Shown piece by piece: positions 2,981-17,705 of a DNA stretch of 17,705 bases. The DNA lies in IMG/VR virus record IMGVR_UViG_2534681773_000018. One strand, written 5' to 3'. The stretch's first letter is position 1; every line of letters begins with the position of its first letter. Source of the DNA: a virus (taxonomy: Duplodnaviria > Heunggongvirae > Uroviricota > Caudoviricetes). A model generated the notes under the pieces. It saw only the letters and a program-made list of their open reading frames with translations. It had not been told where the DNA came from and ran no database searches. The position numbers were made by a program, and so were the translations under genes.

Positions 2981-5900
2981 ATGGGTAAAGGCAGCAGTAA
3001 GGGGCATACCCCGCGCGAAGCGAAGGACAACCTGAAGTCCACGCAGCTGCTGAGTGTGATCGATGCCATCAGCGAAGGGCCGATTGAAGGTCCGGTGGAT
3101 GGATTAAAAAGCGTGCTGCTGAACAGTACGCCGGTGCTGGACAGTGAGGGGAATACCAATATCTCCGGTGTCACGGTGGTGTTCCGGGCCGGTGAGCAGG
3201 AGCAGACACCGCCGGAGGGATTTGAATCCTCCGGCTCCGAGACGGTGCTGGGTACGGAAGTGAAATATGACACGCCGATCACCCGCACCATCACGTCGGC
3301 AAACATCGACCGTCTGCGCTTTACCTTCGGTGTGCAGGCACTGGTGGAAACCACCTCAAAGGGGGACAGGAATCCGTCGGAAGTCCGCCTGCTGGTTCAG
3401 ATACAGCGTAATGGTGGCTGGGTGACGGAAAAAGACATCACCATTAAGGGCAAAACCACCTCGCAGTATCTGGCCTCGGTGGTGGTGGATAACCTGCCGC
3501 CGCGCCCGTTCAATATCCGGATGCGCAGGATGACGCCGGACAGCACCACAGACCAGCTGCAGAACAAAACGCTCTGGTCGTCATACACCGAAATCATCGA
3601 TGTGAAACAGTGCTACCCGAACACGGCACTGGTCGGCGTACAGGTGGACTCGGAGCAGTTCGGCAGCCAGCAGGTGAGCCGTAATTATCATCTGCGCGGG
3701 CGTATTCTGCAGGTGCCGTCGAACTATAACCCGCAGACGCGGCAATACAGCGGTATCTGGGACGGAACGTTTAAACCAGCATACAGCAACAACATGGCCT
3801 GGTGTCTGTGGGATATGCTGACCCATCCGCGCTACGGCATGGGGAAACGTCTTGGTGCGGCGGATGTGGATAAATGGGCGCTGTATGTCATCGGCCAGAA
3901 TTGCGACCAGTCGGTGCCGGACGGCTTTGGCGGCACGGAGCCGCGCATCACCTGTAATGCCTGGCTGACCACACAGCGCAAGGCGTGGGATGTGCTCAGT
4001 GATTTCTGCTCGGCGATGCGCTGTATGCCGGTATGGAACGGGCAGACGCTGACGTTCGTGCAGGACCGACCATCAGATAAGGTGTGGACCTATAACCGCA
4101 GTAATGTGGTGATGCCGGATGATGGCGCGCCGTTCCGCTACAGCTTCAGCGCCCTGAAGGACCGCCATAATGCCGTTGAGGTGAACTGGATTGACCCGAA
4201 TAACGGCTGGGAGACGGCGACAGAGCTTGTGGAGGACACGCAGGCCATTGCCCGTTACGGTCGTAACGTCACGAAGATGGATGCCTTTGGCTGTACCAGC
4301 CGGGGGCAGGCACACCGCGCCGGGCTGTGGCTGATTAAAACAGAACTGCTGGAGACGCAGACCGTGGATTTCAGCGTGGGTGCTGAAGGGCTTCGCCATG
4401 TACCGGGCGATGTCATTGAAATCTGCGATGATGACTATGCCGGTATCAGCACCGGTGGGCGCGTGCTGGCGGTAAACAGCCAGACCCGGACGCTGACGCT
4501 CGACCGTGAAATCACGCCGCCATCCTCCGGTACCACGCTGATAAGCCTGGTTGACGGAAGTGGCAATCCGATCAGCGTGGAGGTTCAGTCCGTCACCGAC
4601 GGCGTGAAGGTGAAAGTGAGCCGTGTTCCTGACGGCGTTGCAGAATACAGTGTGTGGGGGCTGAAGTTGCCGACGTTGCGCCAGCGCCTGTTCCGCTGTG
4701 TGAGTATCCGTGAGAACGATGACGGCACGTATGCTATCACCGCCGTGCAGCATGTACCGGAAAAAGAAGCCATCGTGGATAACGGGGCGCACTTTGACGG
4801 CGACCAGAGCGGCACGGTGAATGGTGTCACGCCGCCAGCGGTGCAGCACCTGACTGCCGAAGTCACCGCAGACAGCGGGGAATATCAGGTGCTGGCGCGC
4901 TGGGACACACCGAAGGTGGTGAAGGGCGTGAGCTTCCTGCTCCGTCTGACCGTAACAGCGGACGACGGCAGTGAGCGGCTGGTCAGCACGGCCCGGACGA
5001 CGGAAACCACATACCGCTTCACACAACTGGCGTTGGGGAACTACAGGCTGACAGTCCGGGCGGTAAATGCGTGGGGACAGCAGGGCGATCCGGCATCGGT
5101 ATCGTTCCGGATTGCCGCACCGGCAGCGCCGTCTCGGATTGAGCTGACACCGGGCTATTTTCAGATAACCGCCACGCCGCATCTTGCGGTTTATGACCCG
5201 ACGGTACAGTTTGAGTTCTGGTTCTCGGAAAAACGGATTGCGGATATCAGGCAGGTTGAAACCAGCGCGCGTTATCTTGGTACGGCACTGTACTGGATAG
5301 CCGCCAGTATCAATATCAAACCGGGCCATGATTATTATTTTTACGTTCGCAGTGTGAACACCGTTGGCAAATCGGCATTCGTGGAGGCTGTCGGTCAGCC
5401 GAGTGATGATGCATCAGGCTATCTGGATTTTTTCAAAGGCGAGATAGGGAAAACCCATCTGGCTCAGGAGCTGTGGACGCAGATTGATAACGGTCAGCTT
5501 GCGCCTGACCTGACTGAAATCAGGACGTCCATAACGGATGTCAGCAATGAAATAACACAGACCGTCAATAAGAAACTGGAAGACCAGAGTGCAGCGATCC
5601 AGCAGATACAGAAGGTTCAGGTTGATACAAATAATAACCTGAACAGCATGTGGGCAGTGAAGCTGCAGCAGATGCAGGACGGACGCCTTTATATTGCGGG
5701 TATCGGTGCCGGTATTGAGAACACCCCTGACGGCATGCAGAGTCAGGTGCTGCTGGCAGCAGACAGGATTGCGATGATTAATCCTGCGAATGGCAACACA
5801 AAGCCGATGTTTGTTGGTCAGGGCGATCAGATATTCATGAATGAAGTGTTCCTGAAACGCCTGACGGCCCCCACCATTACCAGCGGCGGTAATCCTCCGG

Positions 5901-6478
5901 CATTTTCCCTGACATCAGACGGGAGACTGACGGCGAAAAATGCGGATATCAGTGGCAGTGTGAATGCGAACTCAGGAACGCTCAACAATGTCACGATTAA
6001 CCAGAACTGTACGATTAAGGGCATGCTGGAGGCGACCCAGGTCAGAGGAGATTTCGTTAAAGCTGTATCAAAAGCCTTCCCGAAAAAAGTCGGTACGTGG
6101 GGTAACACGGAAACACCAAACGGTACGGTTACAGTCACCATCAGCGATGATCATAACTTTGACCGCCAGATTATTATTCCGCCCATTATTTTTAACGGTA
6201 TAGCGTATGACGATCCGGGGAGCGGAAATAACCCAGGAGGCACGCGATACACGGGTTATGGTTTTGAAGTTCGCAAAAACGGCGTATTAATCGCATCCAG
6301 AGAAACTAAAGGGGCCATTCCCGGTAGTTACAGTGCAGTTATTGATATGCCGAGTGGCAGGGGAAGCGTCACTCTGGAGTTTAAGATTTTCCAGAAAGGC
6401 AATCAGGGGGCAGGCAATATCACCGACTGTACGGTGATTGTGACCAAAAAAGCCGCTTCCGGCATCAGTATTCGTTGA
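2981..6478 (+). CDS. J: Tail tip attachment / host specificity protein J (lambda gpJ-like), 1165 aa
   Basis: 1165-aa ORF beginning [54 protein letters not shown], matching the lambda gpJ N-terminal and central regions. The C-terminal third (receptor-binding region) differs from what I recall for lambda J. Immediately followed by an intrinsic terminator. Confidence 0.93.
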
Positions 6479-6548: not shown

Positions 6549-7148
6549 ATGCGTAAAGTTTGTGCAGCAATTTTGTCCGCAGCCATTTGTCTGGCCGTAT
6601 CCGGTGCGCCTGCATGGGCGTCTGAACATCAGTCCACGCTGAGCGCGGGGTATCTTCATGCCTCGACGAACGTCCCCGGCAGCGATGATCTGAACGGGAT
6701 TAACGTGAAATACCGTTATGAGTTTACGGACACACTGGGGCTGGTGACGTCATTCAGCTATGCAGGAGACAAGAATCGCCAGCTGACCCGTTACAGCGAT
6801 ACCCGCTGGCATGAAGATTCCGTTCGTAACCGCTGGTTCAGCGTAATGGCGGGGCCGTCTGTGCGCGTGAATGAATGGTTCAGCGCGTATGCGATGGCGG
6901 GTGTAGCTTACAGCCGTGTGTCGACTTTCTCCGGGGATTATCTTCGCGTAACTGACAACAAGGGGAAAAAGCACGATGTGCTGACCGGAAGTGATGACGG
7001 TCGCCACAGCAACACGTCTCTGGCGTGGGGGGCTGGCGTGCAGTTTAACCCGACCGAATCCGTGGCCATTGATATTGCTTATGAATGCTCCGGCAGTGGC
7101 GACTGGCGCACTGACGGTTTCATCGTGGGTGTCGGTTATAAATTCTGA
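6549..7148 (+). CDS. lom: Lom-family outer membrane protein (Ail/Lom/OmpX beta-barrel), 199 aa, prophage moron
   Basis: Signal-peptide-like N-terminus (MRKVCAAILSAAICLAVSGAPAWA), C-terminal GVGYKF beta-barrel terminus with terminal Phe, position directly after J as in lambda. Preceded by GAGAGG ribosome-binding site and flanked by terminators on both sides. Confidence 0.9.
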   Translation: MRKVCAAILSAAICLAVSGAPAWASEHQSTLSAGYLHASTNVPGSDDLNGINVKYRYEFTDTLGLVTSFSYAGDKNRQLTRYSDTRWHEDSVRNRWFSVMAGPSVRVNEWFSAYAMAGVAYSRVSTFSGDYLRVTDNKGKKHDVLTGSDDGRHSNTSLAWGAGVQFNPTESVAIDIAYECSGSGDWRTDGFIVGVGYKF

Positions 7149-7201: not shown

Positions 7202-7212
7202 GTGGGGTGAAT

Positions 7213-10107
7213 ATGGCAGTAAAGATTTCAGGTGTACTGAAAGACGGCACAGGAAAACCGGTACAGAACTGCACAATCCAGCTGAAAGCAAAACGTAACA
7301 GCACCACGGTGGTGGTGAACACGCTGGCCTCAGAAAATCCGGATGAAGCCGGGCGTTACAGCATGGACGTTGAGTACGGGCAGTACAGCGTTATTCTGTT
7401 GGTGGAGGGATTCCCGCCGTCACATGCCGGGACCATCACCGTGTATGAAGATTCCCGACCCGGTACGCTGAATGATTTTCTCGGTGCCATGACGGAGGAT
7501 GATGCCCGTCCTGAGGCACTGCGCCGTTTTGAACTGATGGTGGAAGAGGTGGCGCGTAACGCGTCCGCGGTGGCACAGAACACGGCAGCCGCGAAGAAGT
7601 CAGCCAGCGATGCCAGCACATCAGCCCGTGAGGCGGCAACCCATGCGACTGATGCTGCAGATTCAGCACGTGCAGCCAGCACGTCAGCCGGACAGGCCGC
7701 TTCGTCGGCTCAGTCAGCGTCTTCCAGCGCAGGAACGGCATCAACAAAGGCCACTGAAGCCTCAAAAAGTGCTGCCGCTGCAGAGTCCTCAAAAAGCGTG
7801 GCAGCTACCAGTGCCGGTGCGGCGAAAACGTCAGAAACGAATGCCGCAGCGTCAGAACAATCAGCCGCCACTTCTGCATCCACCGCGACCACGAAAGCGT
7901 CAGAAGCTGCCACCTCAGCCCGGGATGCGGCGGCCTCAAAAGAGGCAGCGAAATCATCAGAAACGAACGCATCCTTGAGCGCCAGTAGCGCAGCTTCCTC
8001 GGCAACGGCGGCAGGAAATTCCGCGAAGGCGGCAAAAACGTCCGAGACGAACGCCAGGTCTTCTGAGACGGCAGCGGGACAGAGCGCCTCAGCTGCGGCA
8101 GGCTCAAAAACAGCGGCTGCGTCGTCTGCCAGTGCCGCGTCAACAAGTGCCGGGCAGGCCTCAGCCAGTGCCACCGCCGCCGGAAAATCGGCAGAAAGCG
8201 CCGCATCATCCGCTTCAACAGCCACAACGAAGGCTGGCGAAGCCACTGAGCAGGCCACGGCAGCAGCGAGGTCAGCTTCCGCAGCGAAGACATCCGAAAC
8301 GAACGCGAAAGCGTCGGAAACCCGTGCAGAATCCTCAAAAACGGCAGCGGCATCGTCCGCCAGTTCGGCGGCGTCATCGGCATCATCGGCGTCTGCTTCA
8401 AAAGATGAGGCGACCAGACAGGCGTCAGCAGCGAAGGGCAGCGCCACGACGGCATCCACGAAGGCGACAGAGGCTGCTGGTAGTGCGAAGGCAGCAGCTC
8501 AGAGCAAAAGTACGGCGGAATCTGCAGCAACGCGCGCTGAGACAGCGGCAAAACGGGCAGAGGATATTGCATCCGCCGTGGCGCTTGAGGATGCGAGCAC
8601 GACGAAAAAGGGGATAGTACAGCTCAGTAGTGCGACTAACAGCACTTCCGAGTCACTGGCGGCAACGCCAAAGGCAGTAAAAGCAGCCAATGACAATGCT
8701 GAGAAACGTCTGCAGAAAGATCAGAACGGTGCGGATATCCCTGGCAAAGACACCTTTACGAAAAATATTGGTGCCTGCCGTGCCTTCGGTGGGTCAGTAA
8801 GCACAACAACAGGAAACTGGACGACTGCACAGTTTATCGAGTGGCTGGATTCTCAGGGAGCATTTAACCATCCATACTGGATGTGCAAGGGTTCCTGGTC
8901 TTATGGCAATAATAAAATCATTACTGATACTGGCTGCGGTAATATTCATCTCGCCGGAGCTGTCATTGAAGTAATGGGGATAAAGTCAGCGATGACGATC
9001 CGCATTACCACTCCGACCACATCCAGCGGTGGCGGAACAACCAACGCCCAGTTTACCTATATTAATCACGGAACAGATTATTCACCTGGCTGGCGAAGGG
9101 ACTATAACTCCAGAAATAAGCCAACGGCATCAGAGATCGGGGCGCTACCGTCAGGTGGAACAGCAGTATCATCAGTTAATCTGGCTTCAAAAGGTCGGGT
9201 AGCCGCGCTGACAGACAATACGCAGGGGGCAGCAGGTCTTGAGTTATACGAGGTGTATAACAACGGATATCCAACAACGTATGGAAATATCATTCACCTG
9301 AAAGGGATGACAGCCGTTGGCGAAGGTGAGTTACTCATCGGCTGGAGTGGTACAAGCGGTGCTCATGCTCCGGCATTTATTCGTTCACGACGGGATACGA
9401 CCGACGCAAACTGGTCGCCGTGGGCGCAGCTTTACACCTCGGCTCATCCTCCTGCAGAGTTTTATCCAGTCGGTGCACCAATCCCGTGGCCATCAGATAC
9501 CGTTCCGTCTGGTTATGTCCTGATGCAGGGGCAGACTTTTGACAAATCTGCATACCCGAAACTTGCAGCCGCTTATCCGTCAGGCGTGATCCCTGATATG
9601 CGTGGCTGGACGATTAAGGGCAAACCTGCCAGTGGTCGGGCCGTATTGTCTCAGGAACAGGACGGCATTAAATCGCACACCCACAGCGCCAGCGCATCCA
9701 GTACGGATTTGGGGACGAAAACCACATCGTCGTTTGATTACGGCACTAAATCCACGAATAACATCGGGGCGCATACGCACAGTGTGAGCGGTACAGCCGC
9801 AAGTGCCGGAAACCATACTCATAGTGTCACAGGCGCATCAGCAGTCAGCCAGTGGTCACAAAATGGGTCAGTACATAAGGTAGTGTCTGCGGCCAGTGTG
9901 AATACAAGTGCTGCAGGAGCGCACACTCATAGTGTCAGCGGCACAGCTGCATCTGCAGGTGCTCACGCACATACTGTCGGTATTGGTGCTCATACGCACT
10001 CGGTTGCGATTGGCTCACATGGACACACCATCACCGTTAACGCTGCTGGTAACGCGGAAAACACCGTCAAAAACATCGCATTTAACTATATTGTGAGGCT
10101 TGCATGA
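7213..10107 (+). CDS. stf: Side tail fibre protein (lambda Stf-like), about 964 aa from ATG 7213
   Basis: N-terminus [26 protein letters not shown] matches lambda Stf. The ORF track starts at GTG 7207, but ATG 7213 is preceded by a GGGG run and matches the lambda start. Long Ala/Ser/Thr-rich repetitive segment, a Cys/Trp-containing central domain, and a C-terminal region with repeated GAHxH motifs ending [11 protein letters not shown] as in lambda Stf. Confidence 0.9.
7560..8590 (+). repeat. Imperfect tandem coding repeats (Ala/Ser/Thr-rich, recurring AAKTSETNA / SASTATTKA units) inside stf
   Basis: Recurrent nucleotide motifs such as aaaacgtcagaaacgaatgc / aagacatccgaaacgaacgc and the corresponding peptide repeats. 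The region has few stop codons in any frame, which produces many overlapping alternative-frame ORFs in the track. Confidence 0.6.
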
Positions 10108-10394
10108 TTACGCTCATTCTTTCTGCACCAGTAACCGAAATGGCTGAAGCATTTAAGCGGGTATTTGCAAATGCAGATAATGTGAATATTGTCGGAAAGC
10201 CATTTGAAACAATCAGAGAATTTGACTGCATGGTAAGTGCGGCAAATAGTTTCGGCCTGATGGATGGCGGTGTTGATGCCGCCATTACCACATTCTTCGG
10301 TTCTCAGCTACAGGCCCGCGTTCAGAATCATATTCTTCGTGAATATCTCGGCGAGCAGCCTGTAGGTTCTGCATTTGTGATCCTACCCACGTAA
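10104..10394 (+). CDS. Macro-domain-like protein fragment (putative ADP-ribose binding/processing); 3' end truncated by IS3
   Basis: ATG 10104 overlaps the stf stop (ATGA), suggesting translational coupling. Product contains [21 protein letters not shown], resembling the macro-domain signature (VVNAAN...GGGV..AI). Visibly more AT-rich than stf. The frame runs into the IS3 terminal repeat (from 10378) and stops there, so the last few codons are IS-derived. Confidence 0.45.
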
Positions 10395-10407
10395 TATGGA
10401 CACAGGC

Positions 10408-11274
10408 CTAAGCGAGGTTCTGGTTTTCAAATTGTTCCGGACTGAGGCCGCCACACCAACTGTGCCGCCGCCACCGATTGTAATCACATTCGATATAATT
10501 AAACACCGTTGCCCGCATTATTTCCCGGCTGATAAAGTGTTCTCCATGGATACATTCCACTTTCAGCGAATGAAAGAAGCTTTCCACGCAGGCATTATCG
10601 TAGCAGCAACCTTTTGCGCTCATACTTCCACGCAGATTATGCCGCTTCAGTTGCGCCTGATAATCTGCTGAACAGTACTGGCCTCCACGGTCCGTGTGAA
10701 CGATAACGTTCCGGGGCCTCTTACGCCGCCACAGCGCCATCTGCAGGGCATCGCAGGCCAGTTGCGCCGTCATGCGTGGCGACATTGACCAGCCAATAAC
10801 GGCACGTGACCACAGGTCAATGACCACTGCCAGATACAGCCAGCCTTCATCTGTACGTAAGTACGTGATGTCTCCTGCCCACTTCTGGTTCGGGCCACTG
10901 GCGTAAAAATCCTGCTCCAACAGATTTTCTGACACAGGCAGGCCGTGTGCGCGGTAGCTGACCGGGCTGAACTTCCGGGAGGCCTTTGCCCTCAGTCCCT
11001 GACGGCGCAGGCTTGCCGCCACGGTTTTTACGTTAAAGGGGTAACCCTGAGCACGCAGTTCATCCGTCAGGCGTGGGGCACCGTAACGCTGTTTTGACCG
11101 GGTAAAAGCCGCGAGGACAACGCTGTCGCAGTGTTGGCGGAACTGCTGACGCGTGCTTATCCTTGTCCGCCGCTGACACCACGTATACCAGCCGCTGCGG
11201 GCCACCCGGAGCACGCGGCACATTGCTTTGATGCTGAACTCAGCCTGATGTTTTTCAATAAAGACATACTTCAT
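10408..11274 (-). CDS. insF: IS3 transposase OrfB (DDE integrase-like catalytic domain), 288 aa
   Basis: 288-aa ORF beginning [36 protein letters not shown], recognisable as the IS3 OrfB/InsF sequence. ATG 11272-11274 overlaps the orfA stop in the -1 arrangement typical of the IS3 family. Confidence 0.9.
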
Positions 11275-11569
11275 TTCAGGCGCTTCGCGAAGTATGTCGC
11301 GGCCTTTTGGAGGATAGCCAGCTCTTCATCCCGTTCTGCCAGCTGGCGTTTGAGACGTGCAATCTCGGTAGACATCTCCAGTTCACGTTCAGAAGACGTC
11401 TGCTGATTTTGCTGTTTACTGCGCCAGTTGTAGAGCTGTGATTCATACAGGCTGAGTTCACGGGCTGCGGCAGTAACACCGATGCGTTCAGCAAGCTTCA
11501 GGGCTTCACTGCGAAATTCAGGCGAATGCTGTTTACGGGGTTTTTACTGGTTGATACTGTTTTTGTCAT
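11271..11569 (-). pseudogene. insE: IS3 orfA (InsE-like HTH protein); reading frame appears interrupted in this copy
   Basis: ATG at 11567-11569 opens the expected MTKTVSTSK start and the C-terminal segment ([37 protein letters not shown]) is readable in the frame ending at 11271-11273. No intact ORF joins them in the track: the span is 299 nt (not a multiple of 3) and my hand translation hits an early stop after about 20 codons. Base-level details here are uncertain. Confidence 0.5.
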
Positions 11570-11634
11570 GTGAGTCACCTCTGACTGAGAGTTTACTCAC
11601 TTAGCCGCGTGTCCACTATTGCTGGGTAAGATCA

Positions 11635-11857
11635 CCGGGCAGGTCTGTATTAACCCTGAACATCAGGCTGATGATGTACTGATACAACATCAGGCTAATA
11701 ACCGGTTTCGCCCTGGTTCGCATATACACCGGATTAATCCAGAAAATCCTGTAGGTAATGTCATCTCTGGCGCACATAGCCACGGAAGTAGCATCGTTAT
11801 TGGTGCTCACACCCATACGCTCAATAAACAATATTCTGTCTCTGATATTAAGTAGAG
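11635..11857 (+). pseudogene. 3' remnant of a second tail fibre gene (His-rich GAHxH C-terminal repeat region), truncated at the IS3 boundary
   Basis: The frame entering from the IS3 end encodes ...[30 protein letters not shown] and stops 8 nt before the tfa start. It resembles, but is not identical to, the GAHTHSV.../[16 protein letters not shown] repeats at the stf C-terminus. It sits where a fibre gene 3' end is expected, directly upstream of tfa. Confidence 0.45.
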
Positions 11858-11863
11858 GTGAAC

Positions 11864-12439
11864 ATGGATTTCAGAATGAGTGAACAACCACGGACCATAA
11901 CAATTTATAATCTGCTGGCCGGAACTAATGAATTTATTGGTGAAGGTGACGCATACATTCCGCCTCATACAGGTCTGCCAGCAAACAGTACCGATATTGC
12001 ACCGCCAGATATTCCGGCTGGTTTCGTGGCTGTTTTCAACAGTGATGAGTCATCGTGGCATCTCGTTGAAGATCATCGGGGTAAAACGGTTTATGACGTG
12101 GCTTCCGGCGACGCGTTATTTATTTCTGAACTCGGCTCATTACCGGAAAATGTCACCTGGTTATCCCCGGAAGGGGAGTTTCAGAAGTGGAACGGCACAG
12201 CCTGGGTGAAGGATACGGAAGCAGAAAAACTGTTCCGGATCCGGGAGGCGGAAGAAACAAAAAACAGCCTGATGCAGGTAGCCAGTGAGCATATAGCGCC
12301 GCTTCAGGATGCTGTGGATCTGGAGATCGCAACGGAGAAAGAAACCTTGTTGCTGGAAGCCTGGAAAAAGTATCGGGTGTTGCTGAACCGTGTTGATACA
12401 TCAACTGCACCGGATATTGAATGGCCAGCCCTACCGTAG
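11864..12439 (+). CDS. tfa: Tail fibre assembly protein (lambda Tfa-like), about 191 aa from ATG 11864
   Basis: Product [62 protein letters not shown] ... [45 protein letters not shown] closely matches lambda Tfa. GAGGTG ribosome-binding site about 5 nt upstream of ATG 11864 (the ORF track starts at GTG 11858). Confidence 0.9.
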
Positions 12440-12515: not shown

Positions 12516-12540
12516 AATCTCACACCGAGATTATTTTTAT
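12516..12540 (+). terminator. Weak hairpin plus T-run between the convergent tfa and invertase genes (possible terminator)
   Basis: aatctc (12516-12521) / gagatt (12527-12532) with loop acacc, followed by atttttat. The stem is short and AT-rich and overlaps the invertase stop codon. Confidence 0.25.
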
Positions 12541-13127
12541 ATATCAGGTGTCTGATTTTTTGCTTTAGCTCTTAAAATGGTTTGCCGCGAGGTTTTGAAT
12601 TCTTGGGCAATGTCACTTATATTTATACCTGACTTAATTTGCTCTAGTACCCTCTGTATTTGTTCATCATTTAACACAGGTGGGCGACCAAATCGCTTTC
12701 CTGCGCCCCGTGCTCTTAATATCCCTGAATGAGTACGCTCAAGTAAAAGGTCTCGCTCAAATTCAGCGACTGCTGAAATTACTTGCATCATCATTTTTCC
12801 AGGTGGACTGGTCAGGTCAACGCCCCCCAATGCTAAGCAATGCACTTTGATACCTGCTTTGGTCAGTTGTTCCACCGTTTTACTGATATCCATTGGATTA
12901 CAACCGAGGCGATCCAGTTTTGTGACAATCAATGCATCACCTCTTTTCAGTCGATCAAGCAACTGGTTAAAACCAGGACGCTCACTGGTTGCTGCTGAGC
13001 CGCTAATTTGTTCTTCAATTATTTGCTGAGATTTGATGTTAAAACCTGCACTTTCGATTTCCCGACGTTGATTTTTGGTTGTCTTTTCCAGAGTTGATAC
13101 CCGACAGTAAGCATAAATTCGAGACAT
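12537..13127 (-). CDS. Serine recombinase, Gin/Hin/Pin/Cin-type DNA invertase (resolvase/invertase family), 196 aa
   Basis: N-terminal catalytic motif YAYCRVST (active-site Ser), conserved [19 protein letters not shown] and GRPP motifs, and a C-terminal HTH-like tail. It aligns along its length with Gin/Hin as I recall them. Located next to tail-fibre/tfa genes, as pin, gin and cin are. Confidence 0.85.
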
Positions 13128-14226: not shown

Positions 14227-14895
14227 CTATTTTTTCCCTGAAGCGGAAAACATTACTACAGTACCTTGAACCTTGGTTTTAACATTCTCGAAATACTCTG
14301 AGAGTATATGTGTTAAGCCTTCTTCGGAATCTTTTGTGTTTGAAAAGATGCCTTTCTGATTGTAAATGCGCATCAGTTTTTGACCGAAGCTATTGTGCAC
14401 AATTCCATCGCCAAGAATTGTGGCTCCGTATAGAGTTCCATCGTCAGTTAAGGCCTGCGCCGCATTGCGTATTACACAGCTTTTTGTAGATATATTTCCA
14501 GGCAGGCAGTGAAGAAGGTAAAACATGGAAATGGAATCAAATTGACCATGTAACGCCGCGGGATAAGGTTCAAAAACATCATGGTTAATTTTATGTTTAA
14601 TTTTTGATTCCCCAGCCCTTGTAGATGCCGCGTTCAGGCTAGCTTCGTTCAAATCCATTAAAGATATCAGACTACTCTCAGGTACGTGAGTAAGGTAAAA
14701 CCCAGTTCCAACACCAATATCCAGATGGTTGTTACCTAAATGTTCCAGAAAGTGTGGAAGAAGGTGTTCCTTTGTAGGACATCCCCATGCAAGCCGATTT
14801 GATACTCCCAAAACCCACCAGTCATAAAGCTTTAGGGTAAGTGGTGTGTAAATTTTAGCCCCATCATCTGTGTTTTTTTTCATTAATTTCACCAT
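14227..14895 (-). CDS. ybcY: Class I SAM-dependent methyltransferase (ybcY-like), 222 aa
   Basis: Contains the glycine-rich SAM-binding motif LDIGVGTGF. Its position between a tfa gene and a tfaX-like remnant upstream of appY-ompT matches the DLP12 gene order as I remember it. The symbol is assigned by synteny and is not verified. Confidence 0.6.
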   Translation of the reverse strand: MVKLMKKNTDDGAKIYTPLTLKLYDWWVLGVSNRLAWGCPTKEHLLPHFLEHLGNNHLDIGVGTGFYLTHVPESSLISLMDLNEASLNAASTRAGESKIKHKINHDVFEPYPAALHGQFDSISMFYLLHCLPGNISTKSCVIRNAAQALTDDGTLYGATILGDGIVHNSFGQKLMRIYNQKGIFSNTKDSEEGLTHILSEYFENVKTKVQGTVVMFSASGKK

Positions 14896-14951
14896 GTTAT
14901 AGTTTTATTTGTGAATTAAATCAATTATGGCAATGAATTACAAGGGGTTAA

Positions 14952-15212
14952 ATGCTGCCGCAGCATAGCGATATTGAAATAGCCTGGTATGCTTCAATAC
15001 AGCAGGAGCCGAATAGCTGGAAGACCGTCACCACACAGTTCTACATCCAGGAATTCAGTGAGTATATTGCGCCACTGCAGGATGCTGTAGATCTGGAAAT
15101 CGCAACGGAGGAAGAAAGATCGTTGCTGGAAGCCTGAAAAAAGTATCGGGTGCTGCTAAACCGTGTGGACACTTCCGTAGCACCAGATATCGAGTGGCTT
15201 ATTCAACCATAA
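14952..15212 (+). pseudogene. tfaX: Tail fibre assembly gene remnant (tfaX-like): tfa C-terminal homology interrupted by an in-frame stop
   Basis: A 61-aa ORF ends at TGA 15135-15137 in the context EAWKKY (TGG to TGA relative to the intact tfa at 12360). The same frame continues [24 protein letters not shown] to TAA 15210-15212. The 3' roughly 140 nt is a diverged direct repeat of the tfa 3' end (12291-12431). Confidence 0.65.
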
Positions 15213-15753
15213 TAAACAGTATGTATATCATAGGTTATTAATTGTGAGTTTTTTCGGTGTGTTATTTGTTTGATGTTATGCTTTTGCGCCCCAAAAGGTT
15301 GTTTAGATGTATTTTATCAATTGATTTTCAATATCGTTTAATAAAGAAAAATTAAGCAAGCTGGATGTTGGTTTTTTGTTAATTGAATGGTTCTAATAAT
15401 GTTTTTTTACTGTTGTTGAATGTGACTTGATAAGAAATGCAAGTAAAAATGATACTCTTTTTATTTTAAATTCAAACGGTTGACATATATATAGCAAGAG
15501 GTTTCAGGTGCGTTGTAGTGAGTTTATGTTAATAAAAAGTATAGTAAGCGTTGAAAAATGTAACTTTGAAATACGTTAGAATAAAAAACAATATACATAT
15601 AATAATTTAATCTTAAATGAAATTTATTAAAATTTGCAAACTATAATTTTGTGTATAAAAATATAAATGCACATCATCCTGATTATGATTGTGTATTTAA
15701 TTGGTTGTTATTTGACTGCTATCAACTTGTTTTAATTTTATGATAGGTGCAAG

Positions 15754-16502
15754 ATGGATTATGTTTGCTCCGTAGTTTTCATCTGTCAATCATTTGATTT
15801 AATTATAAACAGGAGAGTTATCTCGTTCAAAAAAAATTCATTGTTTATTGTAAGCGACAAAATTAGAAGGGAGTTACCAGTATGCCCCTCTAAACTAAGA
15901 ATTGTTGATATAGATAAGAAAACATGTTTATCCTTTTTTATCGACGTGAATAATGAGCTGCCTGGCAAATTTACTCTTGATAAGAATGGCTATATTGCTG
16001 AAGAGGAACCTCCATTATCGCTTGTTTTTTCTCTGTTTGAAGGGATTAAAATAGCAGACTCACACTCCCTTTGGTTAAAAGAAAGACTATGTATATCCTT
16101 ACTTGCCATGTTCAAAAAACGCGAAAGTGTAAATTCTTTTATACTAACAAATATAAATACATTTACCTGTAAAATTACTGGAATAATCAGTTTTAATATT
16201 GAGCGGCAATGGCATTTAAAAGATATTGCGGAATTGATTTATACGAGTGAAAGTTTAATAAAAAAAGATTAAGGGATGAAGGAACGTCATTTGCTGAAAT
16301 ATTGAGAGATACTAGGATGAGGTATGCAAAAAAACTCATAACTTCAAACTCTTATTCTATCAATGTCGTAGCCCAGAAATGTGGCTATAACAGTACTTCA
16401 TATTTCATATGTGCATTTAAAGATTATTATGGTGTCACGCCATCTCATTATTTTGAGAAAATAATCGGCGTCACAGATGGAATAAACAAAACAATTGACT
16501 GA
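15754..16502 (+). pseudogene. appY: AraC-family transcriptional regulator AppY, interrupted by a frameshift in a poly-A tract (split into 172-aa and 66-aa ORFs)
   Basis: N-terminus [21 protein letters not shown] and its position directly upstream of ompT identify appY. The first frame stops at 16270-16272 right after an A7 run (16260-16266). The second AraC HTH ([24 protein letters not shown]...[23 protein letters not shown]) continues in the +1 frame. The span is 749 nt, one short of a 249-aa gene plus stop. Confidence 0.75.
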
Positions 16503-16751
16503 TAATGTTTATTACAAGTTGTCTACATGTTAATTATAATATTATACAGCGTTTTTTCTGATGTGATATTCTGGAACCATTAATTTGTAATTGGGTTGCT
16601 GTCGCCTATTTTATACATACTATAATTGATGGTTTTCTATGTGATTTAGTTAATAACCTTCTGGGTTTATTTTAAGGGTTAATTGTTACATTGAAATGGC
16701 TAGTTATTCCCCGGGGCGATTTTCACCTCGGGGAAATTTTAGTTGGCGTTC

Positions 16752-17705
16752 TTAAAATGTGTACTTAAGACCAGCAGTAGTGATGAAGTTATAGTTTTCT
16801 ATACCTGCTCCATTTTTGCTGTAGTCTGAAGTGTTATTATTGTGATCATAAAGTGAAGTATTACCTTTTTTATTCGTAACCCGATTCCATGCGCCTTCAA
16901 CATAAACTTTTGCGTTAGGTGTGACGTAATAACCTGCATTGACTGCAACAGAATAGTAATTTTGGTCTTTGACCTTACTGCGATAAGTGATTCTTTTTCC
17001 CGGGTCATAGTGTTCATCGTTATCAGATGATTCCACCCAGCCGCTGTATTTAAATGTGCCACCGAGTTCAAAATCTTCATAACGATAACTTCCAGTCAAG
17101 CCAATGTAGGGCATTTTAAAACGTTGTTTGTAGCCGATTGCCCTTTCTCCATTCGGGAAGGAGCCGATATCATCTCTGAATCCCTCCTCAGAACTGTAGA
17201 TATAGGAACCACCTCTGGCTGTAAAGCTATAACGGCTTTCCTGATATCCGGCCATGAGTCCCAGGCGGTAATTGGGTTCGTTGAGGAGCCAGCCTTTGAT
17301 ATTCAGATCAAATTCGTTGGCATAATTGAGTTGTGTATCAGGGTGTCTACTTTCATCCGTCCAGGTTCCGGGGTTACTGGAATCCATCCAGTCCTGATCG
17401 ACCATATTGCCACCTCGGCTGCCGAGAGTTGTCCAGCCAGCAGCCCCGATAGATATCTGGGGCATCAAATCCCAATTAATTGCACCTTTAATAATTGCAG
17501 CGCTATTGAATTTCCAGTCGAGTTGACTGACTTTTCGGCCTCCTTCTTCGGCTAGATAAACACGCTCTTTTGTTTTTCCGCTCAGAGTTCCAAGACTAAT
17601 GTCCGCATTTATGTTGTCAGGAGTAAACGATAAAGTCTCGGTAGAAGCAAAAGAGCTGATCGCAATAGGGGTTGTCAGGACTATTCCCAGAAGTTTCGCC
17701 CGCAT
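16752..17705 (-). CDS. ompT: Omptin-family outer membrane protease OmpT (protease VII), 317 aa, complete
   Basis: Start codon at 17703-17705 (window edge). Signal peptide MRAKLLGIVLTTPIAISSFA, mature N-terminus STETLSFTPDNINADISLG and C-terminal TTAGLKYTF are recognisable as E. coli OmpT; length 317 aa. Confidence 0.93.
   Translation of the reverse strand: MRAKLLGIVLTTPIAISSFASTETLSFTPDNINADISLGTLSGKTKERVYLAEEGGRKVSQLDWKFNSAAIIKGAINWDLMPQISIGAAGWTTLGSRGGNMVDQDWMDSSNPGTWTDESRHPDTQLNYANEFDLNIKGWLLNEPNYRLGLMAGYQESRYSFTARGGSYIYSSEEGFRDDIGSFPNGERAIGYKQRFKMPYIGLTGSYRYEDFELGGTFKYSGWVESSDNDEHYDPGKRITYRSKVKDQNYYSVAVNAGYYVTPNAKVYVEGAWNRVTNKKGNTSLYDHNNNTSDYSKNGAGIENYNFITTAGLKYTF

Follow-up and report, generated by a model that had tools for sequence, protein, structure and literature searches.

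An IS3-broken macro-domain gene between the side tail fibre and chaperone genes of a lambdoid prophage

We examined a 17,705-nucleotide stretch of a Caudoviricetes genome (IMG/VR record IMGVR_UViG_2534681773_000018), here called the window, and concentrated on a broken macro-domain gene that lies between the side tail fibre gene stf and the tail fibre assembly chaperone gene tfa. The window corresponds to the tail end of a lambdoid prophage. Its stf gene (7207-10107, plus strand) is complete and encodes 966 amino acids with matches to Pfam phage_tail_N (E 1.3e-71), Collar and Phage_fiber. The macro open reading frame (ORF) follows at 10104-10394, and its ATG (10104-10106) overlaps the stf stop codon TGA (10105-10107) in the sequence ATGA. 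This overlap at 10104-10107, and the tight coupling to stf that goes with it, had been described in the initial annotation and are present. The same annotation had put the ORF in the slot that tfa occupies in lambda, which is incorrect, since tfa itself is found at 11864-12439 (plus strand, 191 amino acids from the ATG, Pfam Caudo_TAP E 3.7e-44) and the macro gene lies between stf and tfa. Native macro-gene sequence is present in two pieces on the plus strand, a 5' remnant at 10104-10377 (codons 1-91 plus 1 nt), identified by identity to an intact gene from Escherichia coli (E. coli) p4A and by Pfam Macro, and a 3' remnant at 11635-11855 (codons 228-300 plus the stop codon), in which 221/221 nt are identical to the p4A gene. 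Between them lies an IS3 insertion sequence of 1257 nt on the minus strand (10378-11634).

In E. coli p4A the intact counterpart is an uninterrupted gene of 903 nt between stf and tfa, encoding a protein of 300 amino acids (WP_000631346.1). Alignment and junction arithmetic showed that the window holds nt 1-275 and nt 683-903 of this gene with zero mismatches, and that nt 276-682 (about 408 nt; codons 92-227) are absent, with IS3 in their place. A single 903-nt gene has thus left its two ends at 10104-10377 and 11635-11855. The comparison of lengths that had been suggested for locating the truncation places the break after nt 274 or 275. The proposal that IS3 truncates the gene and leaves its N-terminal half was right in that the ORF runs into IS3, but 91 codons are less than one third of 300 amino acids and the 3' end of the gene survives. 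The broken ORF encodes 96 amino acids, the final five codons of which (VILPT, before the stop) derive from IS3; comparison with the intact protein shows that 10378-10394 (plus strand) is read-through into the IS3 end and not native coding sequence. The translation of the 3' remnant includes GQVCINPEHQADDVLIQHQ and covers the end of a Cys-rich linker and a His-x-His (HxH) tail. The macro domain of the window copy is incomplete, as it lacks His105 and the G154-A-G-C-G158 loop. Because codons 92-227, with the invariant His105 and the GAGCG loop, are gone, the copy is a recent pseudogene and cannot be functional.

What remains of the domain is still recognizable. Residues 44-93 of the window fragment match Pfam Macro (PF01661) with 29.8 bits and E 6.4e-7, against a gathering score of 22, and the 5' fragment matches phrog_2613 (E 3.1e-47). 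A chance ORF was considered and rejected, given the Pfam match above cut-off, the 100% identity of both parts to an annotated gene, and a ratio of nonsynonymous to synonymous substitution rates (dN/dS) of ~0.1.

The interrupting element has the hallmarks of IS3, namely a length of ~1.26 kb, inverted repeats that start with TGATC, and OrfA and OrfB with a DDE (rve) domain. Its left end begins TGATCC at 10378, and imperfect 40-nt inverted repeats lie at 10377-10416 and 11596-11635. The minus strand codes for an rve-type transposase (OrfB at 10408-11274, OrfA start near 11569) with rve, rve_2 and HTH_21 domains, and the megablast matches of the element are annotated 'IS3-like element IS3 family transposase' in RefSeq. 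We looked for the 3-bp target-site duplication of IS3 and did not find it, the flanks being TTG and CCG. The lack of a target duplication, together with the ~408 missing nt, points to an IS3 insertion plus an adjacent deletion or recombination. A simple truncation by IS3 was rejected on the same two observations and on the survival of the 3' end. The closest relatives of the right arm of the window (strains C012, STEC434 and C5) hold an intact gene with exactly the missing 408 nt, and the exact IS3 junction of the window is present in 0/5426 complete E. coli genomes.

Besides the window copy, just one disrupted copy came to light in the 128 E. coli genomes with the gene, that of E. coli ST2350 (NZ_CP031321.1, L001:4680-5945). 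Here the disrupting sequence is a different IS3-family element, with the ends TGTAGTGG...CCACTACA and a CGT target duplication, inserted ~2 nt from the right-hand IS3 junction of the window. The region coding for the Cys-rich linker may be an insertion hotspot. In the window, IS3 now parts stf from tfa, and assembly of the side fibre may also suffer in this prophage.

Next, we turned to the intact protein. The macro-domain-like signature noted at the outset was borne out by the Pfam match of the fragment and by structure-based matches. The intact homologue aligns to the whole 118-position Pfam Macro model (68.6 bits, E 5.9e-19). A profile built from 57 diverse relatives, searched against the PDB, was most similar to yeast YMR087W (1NJR, E 6.8e-16; next match 4.7e-11). 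We built an AlphaFold model of a full-length homologue (P0001) on a 118-sequence alignment, in which residues 1-190 have a predicted local distance difference test (pLDDT) score >90 and are predicted to adopt the three-layer α/β/α macro fold. An earlier alignment of 20 close homologues gave a mean pLDDT of 55, and the C-terminal 100 residues scored low in both models. The best PDB match of the model in Foldseek was again 1NJR, 'ADP-ribose-1''-monophosphatase' (E 3.3e-11, 198 columns, root mean square deviation of 2.9 Å; next match 1.7e-7). There were 203 PDB fold matches at E <= 0.001, and all of the 50 listed matches belong to macro domains or to designed proteins with a sequence match to the family as well. 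It had been left open at the start that full-length homologues would prove to be a tail fibre chaperone; this is not the case, since the macro protein has no match to Caudo_TAP, with neither PF02413 nor PF28596 reached at E <= 1. Pfam, the solved-structure profile and the AlphaFold fold match together support the intact family as a genuine macro-domain gene and not a tail fibre chaperone.

By both sequence profile and predicted fold, YMR087W (Ymx7; PDB 1NJR, 1TXZ, 1TY8) is the best solved relative of the phage family. The two share the motif N-S-(F/Y)-G-x-(M/L)-x-G-G-x-D, and the Asn, Asp and His at the N80, D90 and H145 positions of the yeast protein, which the profile alignment places at N48, D58 and H105 of the phage family. 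In an alignment of 118 phage and cellular homologues none of the three residues varies. N80, D90 and H145 are reportedly the catalytic residues proposed for YMR087W by Kumaran et al. in 2005. YMR087W belongs to the Macro2-type clade and converts ADP-ribose (ADPr)-1''-phosphate to ADP-ribose, with no activity in removing mono-ADP-ribose from proteins (de-MARylating activity; PMC6397177). The resemblance has limits: identity is only ~21%, and the yeast protein is a stand-alone cellular protein linked to tRNA-splicing by-products, whereas the phage protein has an extra Cys-rich linker and HxH tail and is locked in a tail-fibre cassette.

The macro domain is not of the DarG-like class. The PADLOC DarG model matched with E 0.005 over 39 residues only, the DarG structure 5M3I was 14th in the fold search (E 2.2e-6), and among the PADLOC defence families nothing was found past this weak DarG fragment. 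Residues 1-195 are ~46-55% identical to stand-alone proteins of ~200 amino acids from Chloroflexi, cyanobacteria and Acidobacteria. These bacterial proteins, annotated either 'macro domain-containing protein' or 'O-acetyl-ADP-ribose deacetylase', have all invariant residues in common with the phage family but are chromosomal, without the C-terminal extension and without fibre and tfa or any other conserved neighbour: clustering the neighbours of the cellular homologues over 73 loci gave no conserved partner, the best cluster being present in 11 loci. Giant viruses and jumbo Pseudomonas phages likewise encode comparable stand-alone proteins. Separately, four long, probably eukaryotic proteins (P0134, P0138, P0155 and P0211) carry the same macro subtype fused to WD40, rhodanese plus dual-specificity phosphatase-like, or RRM-like regions, as judged by eye from the sequence.

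We then asked how the family is distributed. The intact protein matches PHROG 2613 ('unknown function', E 3e-147) and has 1702 homologues at E <= 0.001 in a 90%-clustered collection. Nearly all of the best 120 of the 1702 come from Escherichia and Salmonella, with single Citrobacter, Enterobacter and Erwinia entries, and these 120 are called 'macro domain-containing protein' or 'phage tail protein' by their sources. The gene is present in 128/5426 complete E. coli genomes and is full length in 127/128 copies. Plasmids of 47-125 kb account for 22 of about 130 E. coli places holding the gene, and most of them measure 85-125 kb, which hints at phage-plasmids. As a side observation, the plasmid copies adjoin genes annotated phage tail or tail fibre (e.g. 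NZ_CP115313.1, NZ_CP148447.1, NZ_CP033252.1).

The order fibre, macro, tfa was found in every enterobacterial locus examined, which answers the question raised in the initial annotation of whether full-length homologues lie downstream of stf-like genes in other prophages too. In these loci the macro ATG overlaps the fibre stop codon, and the macro stop codon overlaps or abuts the tfa start. The C-terminal ending of Stf (...HxH...) recurs upstream of every phage macro gene examined. Lambdoid siphophage cassettes comprise those of the window, p4A, ST2350 and Gifsy-1. P2-like myophage cassettes are found in Chuche and in Salmonella loci with P2-type gpU, baseplate J and tail I genes (L088-L091), and in a Mu-like prophage gp45 to gp48 are followed by fibre, macro and tfa. 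In the 33.5-kb phages SEN4/5 the macro gene adjoins the tail fibre gene. Thus, the gene is a fixed member of a three-gene cassette in lambdoid, P2-like and Mu-like prophages of Enterobacterales. The arrangement is not the unusual one that the initial annotation took it for but a recurrent, conserved cassette, already annotated in RefSeq ('macro domain-containing protein') and in the Gifsy-1 record ('contains pfam01661'). The existence of the gene is not new; what is new is the combination of a YMR087W-type macro domain, a Cys-rich linker and an HxH tail, at a fixed position across phage types. The 'unique tail fiber' paper on BIS20 makes no mention of a tail-fibre-associated macro protein. The higher AT content of the ORF, which had also been pointed out, is real and modest, with a GC fraction of 0.44-0.48 for the macro gene and 0.52-0.56 for the stf 3' end in the intact locus. 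We counted 3 promoter-like and 2 terminator-like sites in 2.4 kb around the gene, against 4.0 and 2.1 in shuffled sequences, and none brackets the gene.

The window tfa is 99.5-100% identical to the tfa genes of p4A and ST2350, its Shine-Dalgarno sequence overlaps the macro stop codon, and an alternative GTG start is possible at 11858. Just past the cassette lies a hotspot with varying cargo or defence genes. In p4A (L002:5609-7508) a reverse-transcriptase gene and a SLATT-domain gene lie directly downstream of tfa, where the window has pin, and in Gifsy-1 pagK and gogB are found downstream of tfa. What is probably a decayed cassette gene is found in Salmonella phage SEN34 (L084:3501-3653), where a 51-residue remnant of the Cys-rich linker, with no macro domain, lies beside an acyltransferase gene, past the genes for the tail fibre and its chaperone.

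By alignment, the 300-residue protein comprises three modules: the macro domain (1-195), the Cys-rich linker and a tail of 30-62 residues that is hypervariable. The linker has four conserved cysteines (C202, C208, C225 and C232) and an HQxDD motif. Histidine makes up 14% of tail residues and 2% of the macro domain. Tails contain 0-3 HxH motifs, with 2-3 in most variants and a mean of 2.1, compared with 0.7 in composition-matched shuffles. The Izhakiella copies have an unrelated Cys-rich linker, yet HxH repeats are again found at the end. The tail repeats (IGAHxHxx) resemble the needle repeats of the adjacent fibre, and in the trimeric needle of the T4 gp37 fibre tip HxH motifs coordinate iron (PMC11705849). 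The macro protein thus resembles lambda Stf and T4 gp37 in the GAHxH repeats that its tail has in common with the adjacent Stf, and its gene lies immediately upstream of a Caudo_TAP chaperone gene, of the Tfa and gp38 kind. It differs from Stf and gp37 in having neither a fibre shaft nor an N-terminal attachment domain and a tail of just 30-60 residues. No phage_tail_N, Collar or fibre-repeat match was found in the macro protein, the N-terminus of which is the macro domain. Derivation of the tail from a known fibre tip was tried and rejected: tblastn of the C-terminal 107 amino acids against 50,697 phage records gave macro proteins only.

The modules evolve differently. With dN/dS of 0.08-0.12 the macro domain is under strong purifying selection, and the tail, at 0.23-0.96, is under relaxed or diversifying selection. 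We compared the cassettes of nine loci in 36 pairs, in which identity was 69-95% for the macro domain, 42-91% for the fibre tip, 50-85% for Tfa and 24-100% for the C-terminal extension. In 35/36 pairs no other element of the cassette is as conserved as the macro domain, the exception being a pair with 91%-identical fibre ends. In the nine loci the tail was not seen to vary together with the fibre tip or with Tfa. Erwinia and Izhakiella, for example, are 88% identical in the macro domain, 77% in the fibre and 83% in Tfa but 30% in the extension, and the L005 and Chuche loci have 100% identical extensions and 65% identical Tfa.

Taken together, the locus is with good confidence best explained as an IS3-broken copy of a cassette macro-domain enzyme, the intact copies of which we propose to be late ADP-ribose-processing, counter-defence enzymes. 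Reading from the sequences, intact copies encode a constrained and probably active enzyme with an ADP-ribose site, the gene of which presumably shares a transcript with the fibre and chaperone genes and is probably coupled to them in translation. The enzyme would be made together with the late tail-fibre proteins, and would bind or hydrolyse an ADP-ribose derivative substituted at the ribose C1'' inside the infected cell; ADPr-1''-phosphate is one candidate ligand, and immune signals made from NAD, for instance gcADPR or His-ADPR, are others. The family has its conserved ligand pocket in common with cytoplasmic enzymes, and ADP-ribose derivatives are found inside cells, so that the protein most likely acts within the infected cell, at the time of late gene expression. 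It would thus be a counter-defence factor produced in step with the fibre and chaperone, with a putative metal-binding tail that would mediate oligomerization or docking. The Cys/HxH tail may oligomerize the enzyme, tether it to conserved parts of the fibre and chaperone, or place it on the virion. A counter-defence role is made plausible by the comparative-genomics prediction of Aravind and colleagues that phage macro domains counter soluble ADPr derivatives (PMC9503650). We put forward the joint step of late co-production, action on an ADP-ribose derivative, counter-defence and a role for the tail only tentatively, and regard it as somewhat doubtful as a whole.

Several points weigh against this proposal. 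A cytoplasmic enzyme has no obvious need of a Cys-rich tail with HxH repeats of the tail-fibre type, and the counter-defence step leaves this tail unexplained. AlphaFold gives no confident fold for residues 200-300 (pLDDT 25-65; 25-32 for the tail, as a monomer prediction), and a tail that does not co-vary with the fibre tip or Tfa is unlikely to dock to their variable parts. Anti-defence genes are more often expressed early than late. The sole studied Macro2-type enzyme works on a tRNA-splicing by-product and not on an immune signal, and the link between Thoeris and tail fibres stems from unrelated N4-like Pseudomonas phages. Our literature search turned up no report of a macro protein belonging to the tail-fibre cassette.

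The alternative that survives best, although we consider it unlikely, is that the macro protein is a virion component: Tfa would fold the HxH tail into a trimeric metal-zippered needle, and the protein would serve as a fibre-tip accessory, adhesin or surface enzyme. The position of the gene between the fibre and chaperone genes in three tail architectures fits this alternative, as does the likeness of the tail HxH repeats to those of the adjacent fibre. The C-terminal extension is also the fastest-evolving module of the cassette, as receptor-binding tips are, and the failure of AlphaFold to fold the tail as a monomer is expected if partners are needed. Many members are named 'phage tail protein' by NCBI, an annotation from context only. 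However, every residue of the ADP-ribose site is kept, the macro domain is ~50% identical to cytoplasmic stand-alone enzymes of Chloroflexi and cyanobacteria, and ADP-ribose ligands are intracellular. The protein furthermore has no N-terminal fibre-attachment domain and no signal peptide, and its tail does not vary in step with the tip of the fibre or with Tfa. Fibres of lambda and of the Rac type that share the Stf C-terminus are assembled with Tfa alone.

A second possibility, raised as speculation in the initial annotation and improbable in our view, is that the protein acts as a de-ADP-ribosylase and removes the ADP-ribose that host defence transferases, DarT or CmdT for instance, attach to phage DNA, RNA or proteins. 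E. coli carries such defence systems, the family has kept the macro fold and the active-site residues, and there is a precedent in AdfM (PhiKZ gp104, PhiPA3 gp108), a phage macro-domain anti-DarT2 factor that removes DarT2 adducts (PMC13309987). AdfM and the cassette protein are both macro-domain proteins encoded by phages, and AdfM sets a precedent for such a domain in anti-defence. It is, however, DarG2-like, with Asn and Lys as putative active-site residues, and acts on ADP-ribosylated DNA in the phage nucleus, whereas the fibre-cassette family is YMR087W-like and only weakly similar to DarG, as the rank of DarG in the fold search (14th) and the 39-residue PADLOC match indicate. The one studied Macro2-type enzyme was reported to be without de-MARylating activity (PMC6397177), and late co-expression with the tail fibre would be poor timing for shielding replicating DNA. 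Beyond AdfM, no phage macro-domain anti-DarT (Adf) factor was found reported in the literature searched.

It is slightly less probable still that the enzyme is real and its extension a functionless relic of the 3' end of a fibre gene that the macro gene would once have entered by insertion, kept open only for translational coupling to tfa. The tail has a dN/dS of ~1 in one close pair and varies in length from about 30 to 62 residues, its repeats resemble the HxH repeats of the fibre itself, and the stop codon is always at the tfa start. The conserved four cysteines and HQxDD motif speak against a filler, as do the Izhakiella copies, in which the linker is wholly different and HxH repeats nevertheless stand at the end, and the ~3x excess of HxH motifs over composition-matched shuffles.

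At about the same low level we place a narrower version of the counter-defence proposal, in which a TIR/Thoeris-type sensor would detect the fibre-chaperone complex and the phage would therefore co-translate the enzyme between both genes. Such detection was recently shown for Pseudomonas N4-like phages. A YMR087W-type enzyme, tethered to this complex by its metal-binding HxH tail, would then hydrolyse or sequester the signal, a ribose-C1''-linked ADP-ribose (His-ADPR or gcADPR), at its source, and an arms race with host sensors would account for the hypervariability of the tail.

The least probable alternative is a moron, that is lysogenic-conversion cargo of the kind that lom and bor represent in lambda, which the lysogen would express to its own advantage and which would only by chance of location be parked by the tail-fibre genes; the gene is AT-richer than stf, a cargo hotspot lies downstream of tfa (reverse transcriptase and SLATT in p4A, pagK and gogB in Gifsy-1) and lom is just upstream in the window, but promoter-like and terminator-like signals are not above chance, a four-nucleotide start/stop overlap ties the gene to the fibre, the macro stop overlaps the tfa ribosome-binding site, and the gene sits inside the fibre-chaperone pair and moves with it between phage types.

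The favoured explanation, an enzyme of late ADP-ribose processing, is of wider relevance. Phage macro domains are only now being tied to counter-defence, and AdfM (2026) belongs to another macro class. The cassette enzyme is wired into the fibre-chaperone pair that temperate enterobacterial phages swap to change host range, and is frequent in lineages of clinical importance, among them ST131 and O157:H7 E. coli and many serovars of Salmonella. If it acts on NAD-derived immune signals, it would link the sensing of tail fibres by host immunity to a dedicated antidote. Carriage on the virion would instead mean a tail fibre that displays a macro domain, an arrangement described in none of the papers searched. 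The window copy is inactivated, which limits what this particular locus can teach.

Finally, we surveyed the remainder of the window. Upstream of the cassette the gene order is tape-measure C-terminus, M, L, K, I, J, lom and stf, with J at 2981-6478 and lom at 6549-7148, just upstream of stf. An Rfam IS009 (RF02111) match lies at 12207-12405 (plus strand; 218.5 bits, gathering score 117), wholly within the 3' half of tfa. A Pin/Gin-type serine recombinase gene is encoded at 12537-13127 on the minus strand (Pfam Resolvase E 5.7e-37, HTH_7) and serves here as context only. There is no second, inverted set of fibre tip and tfa between the window tfa and this recombinase gene, crossover sites not having been searched for, and the usual invertible host-range switch looks degenerate in the window. 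The right arm (14227-17705) resembles DLP12. It includes a class I S-adenosylmethionine (SAM) methyltransferase gene (14227-14895, minus strand), a Tfa fragment of 61 amino acids (14952-15137) and ompT (16752-17705, minus strand), as well as appY according to the RefSeq annotation of near-identical genomes. The DLP12-like content indicates that the tail genes of the window abut relics of an older prophage.

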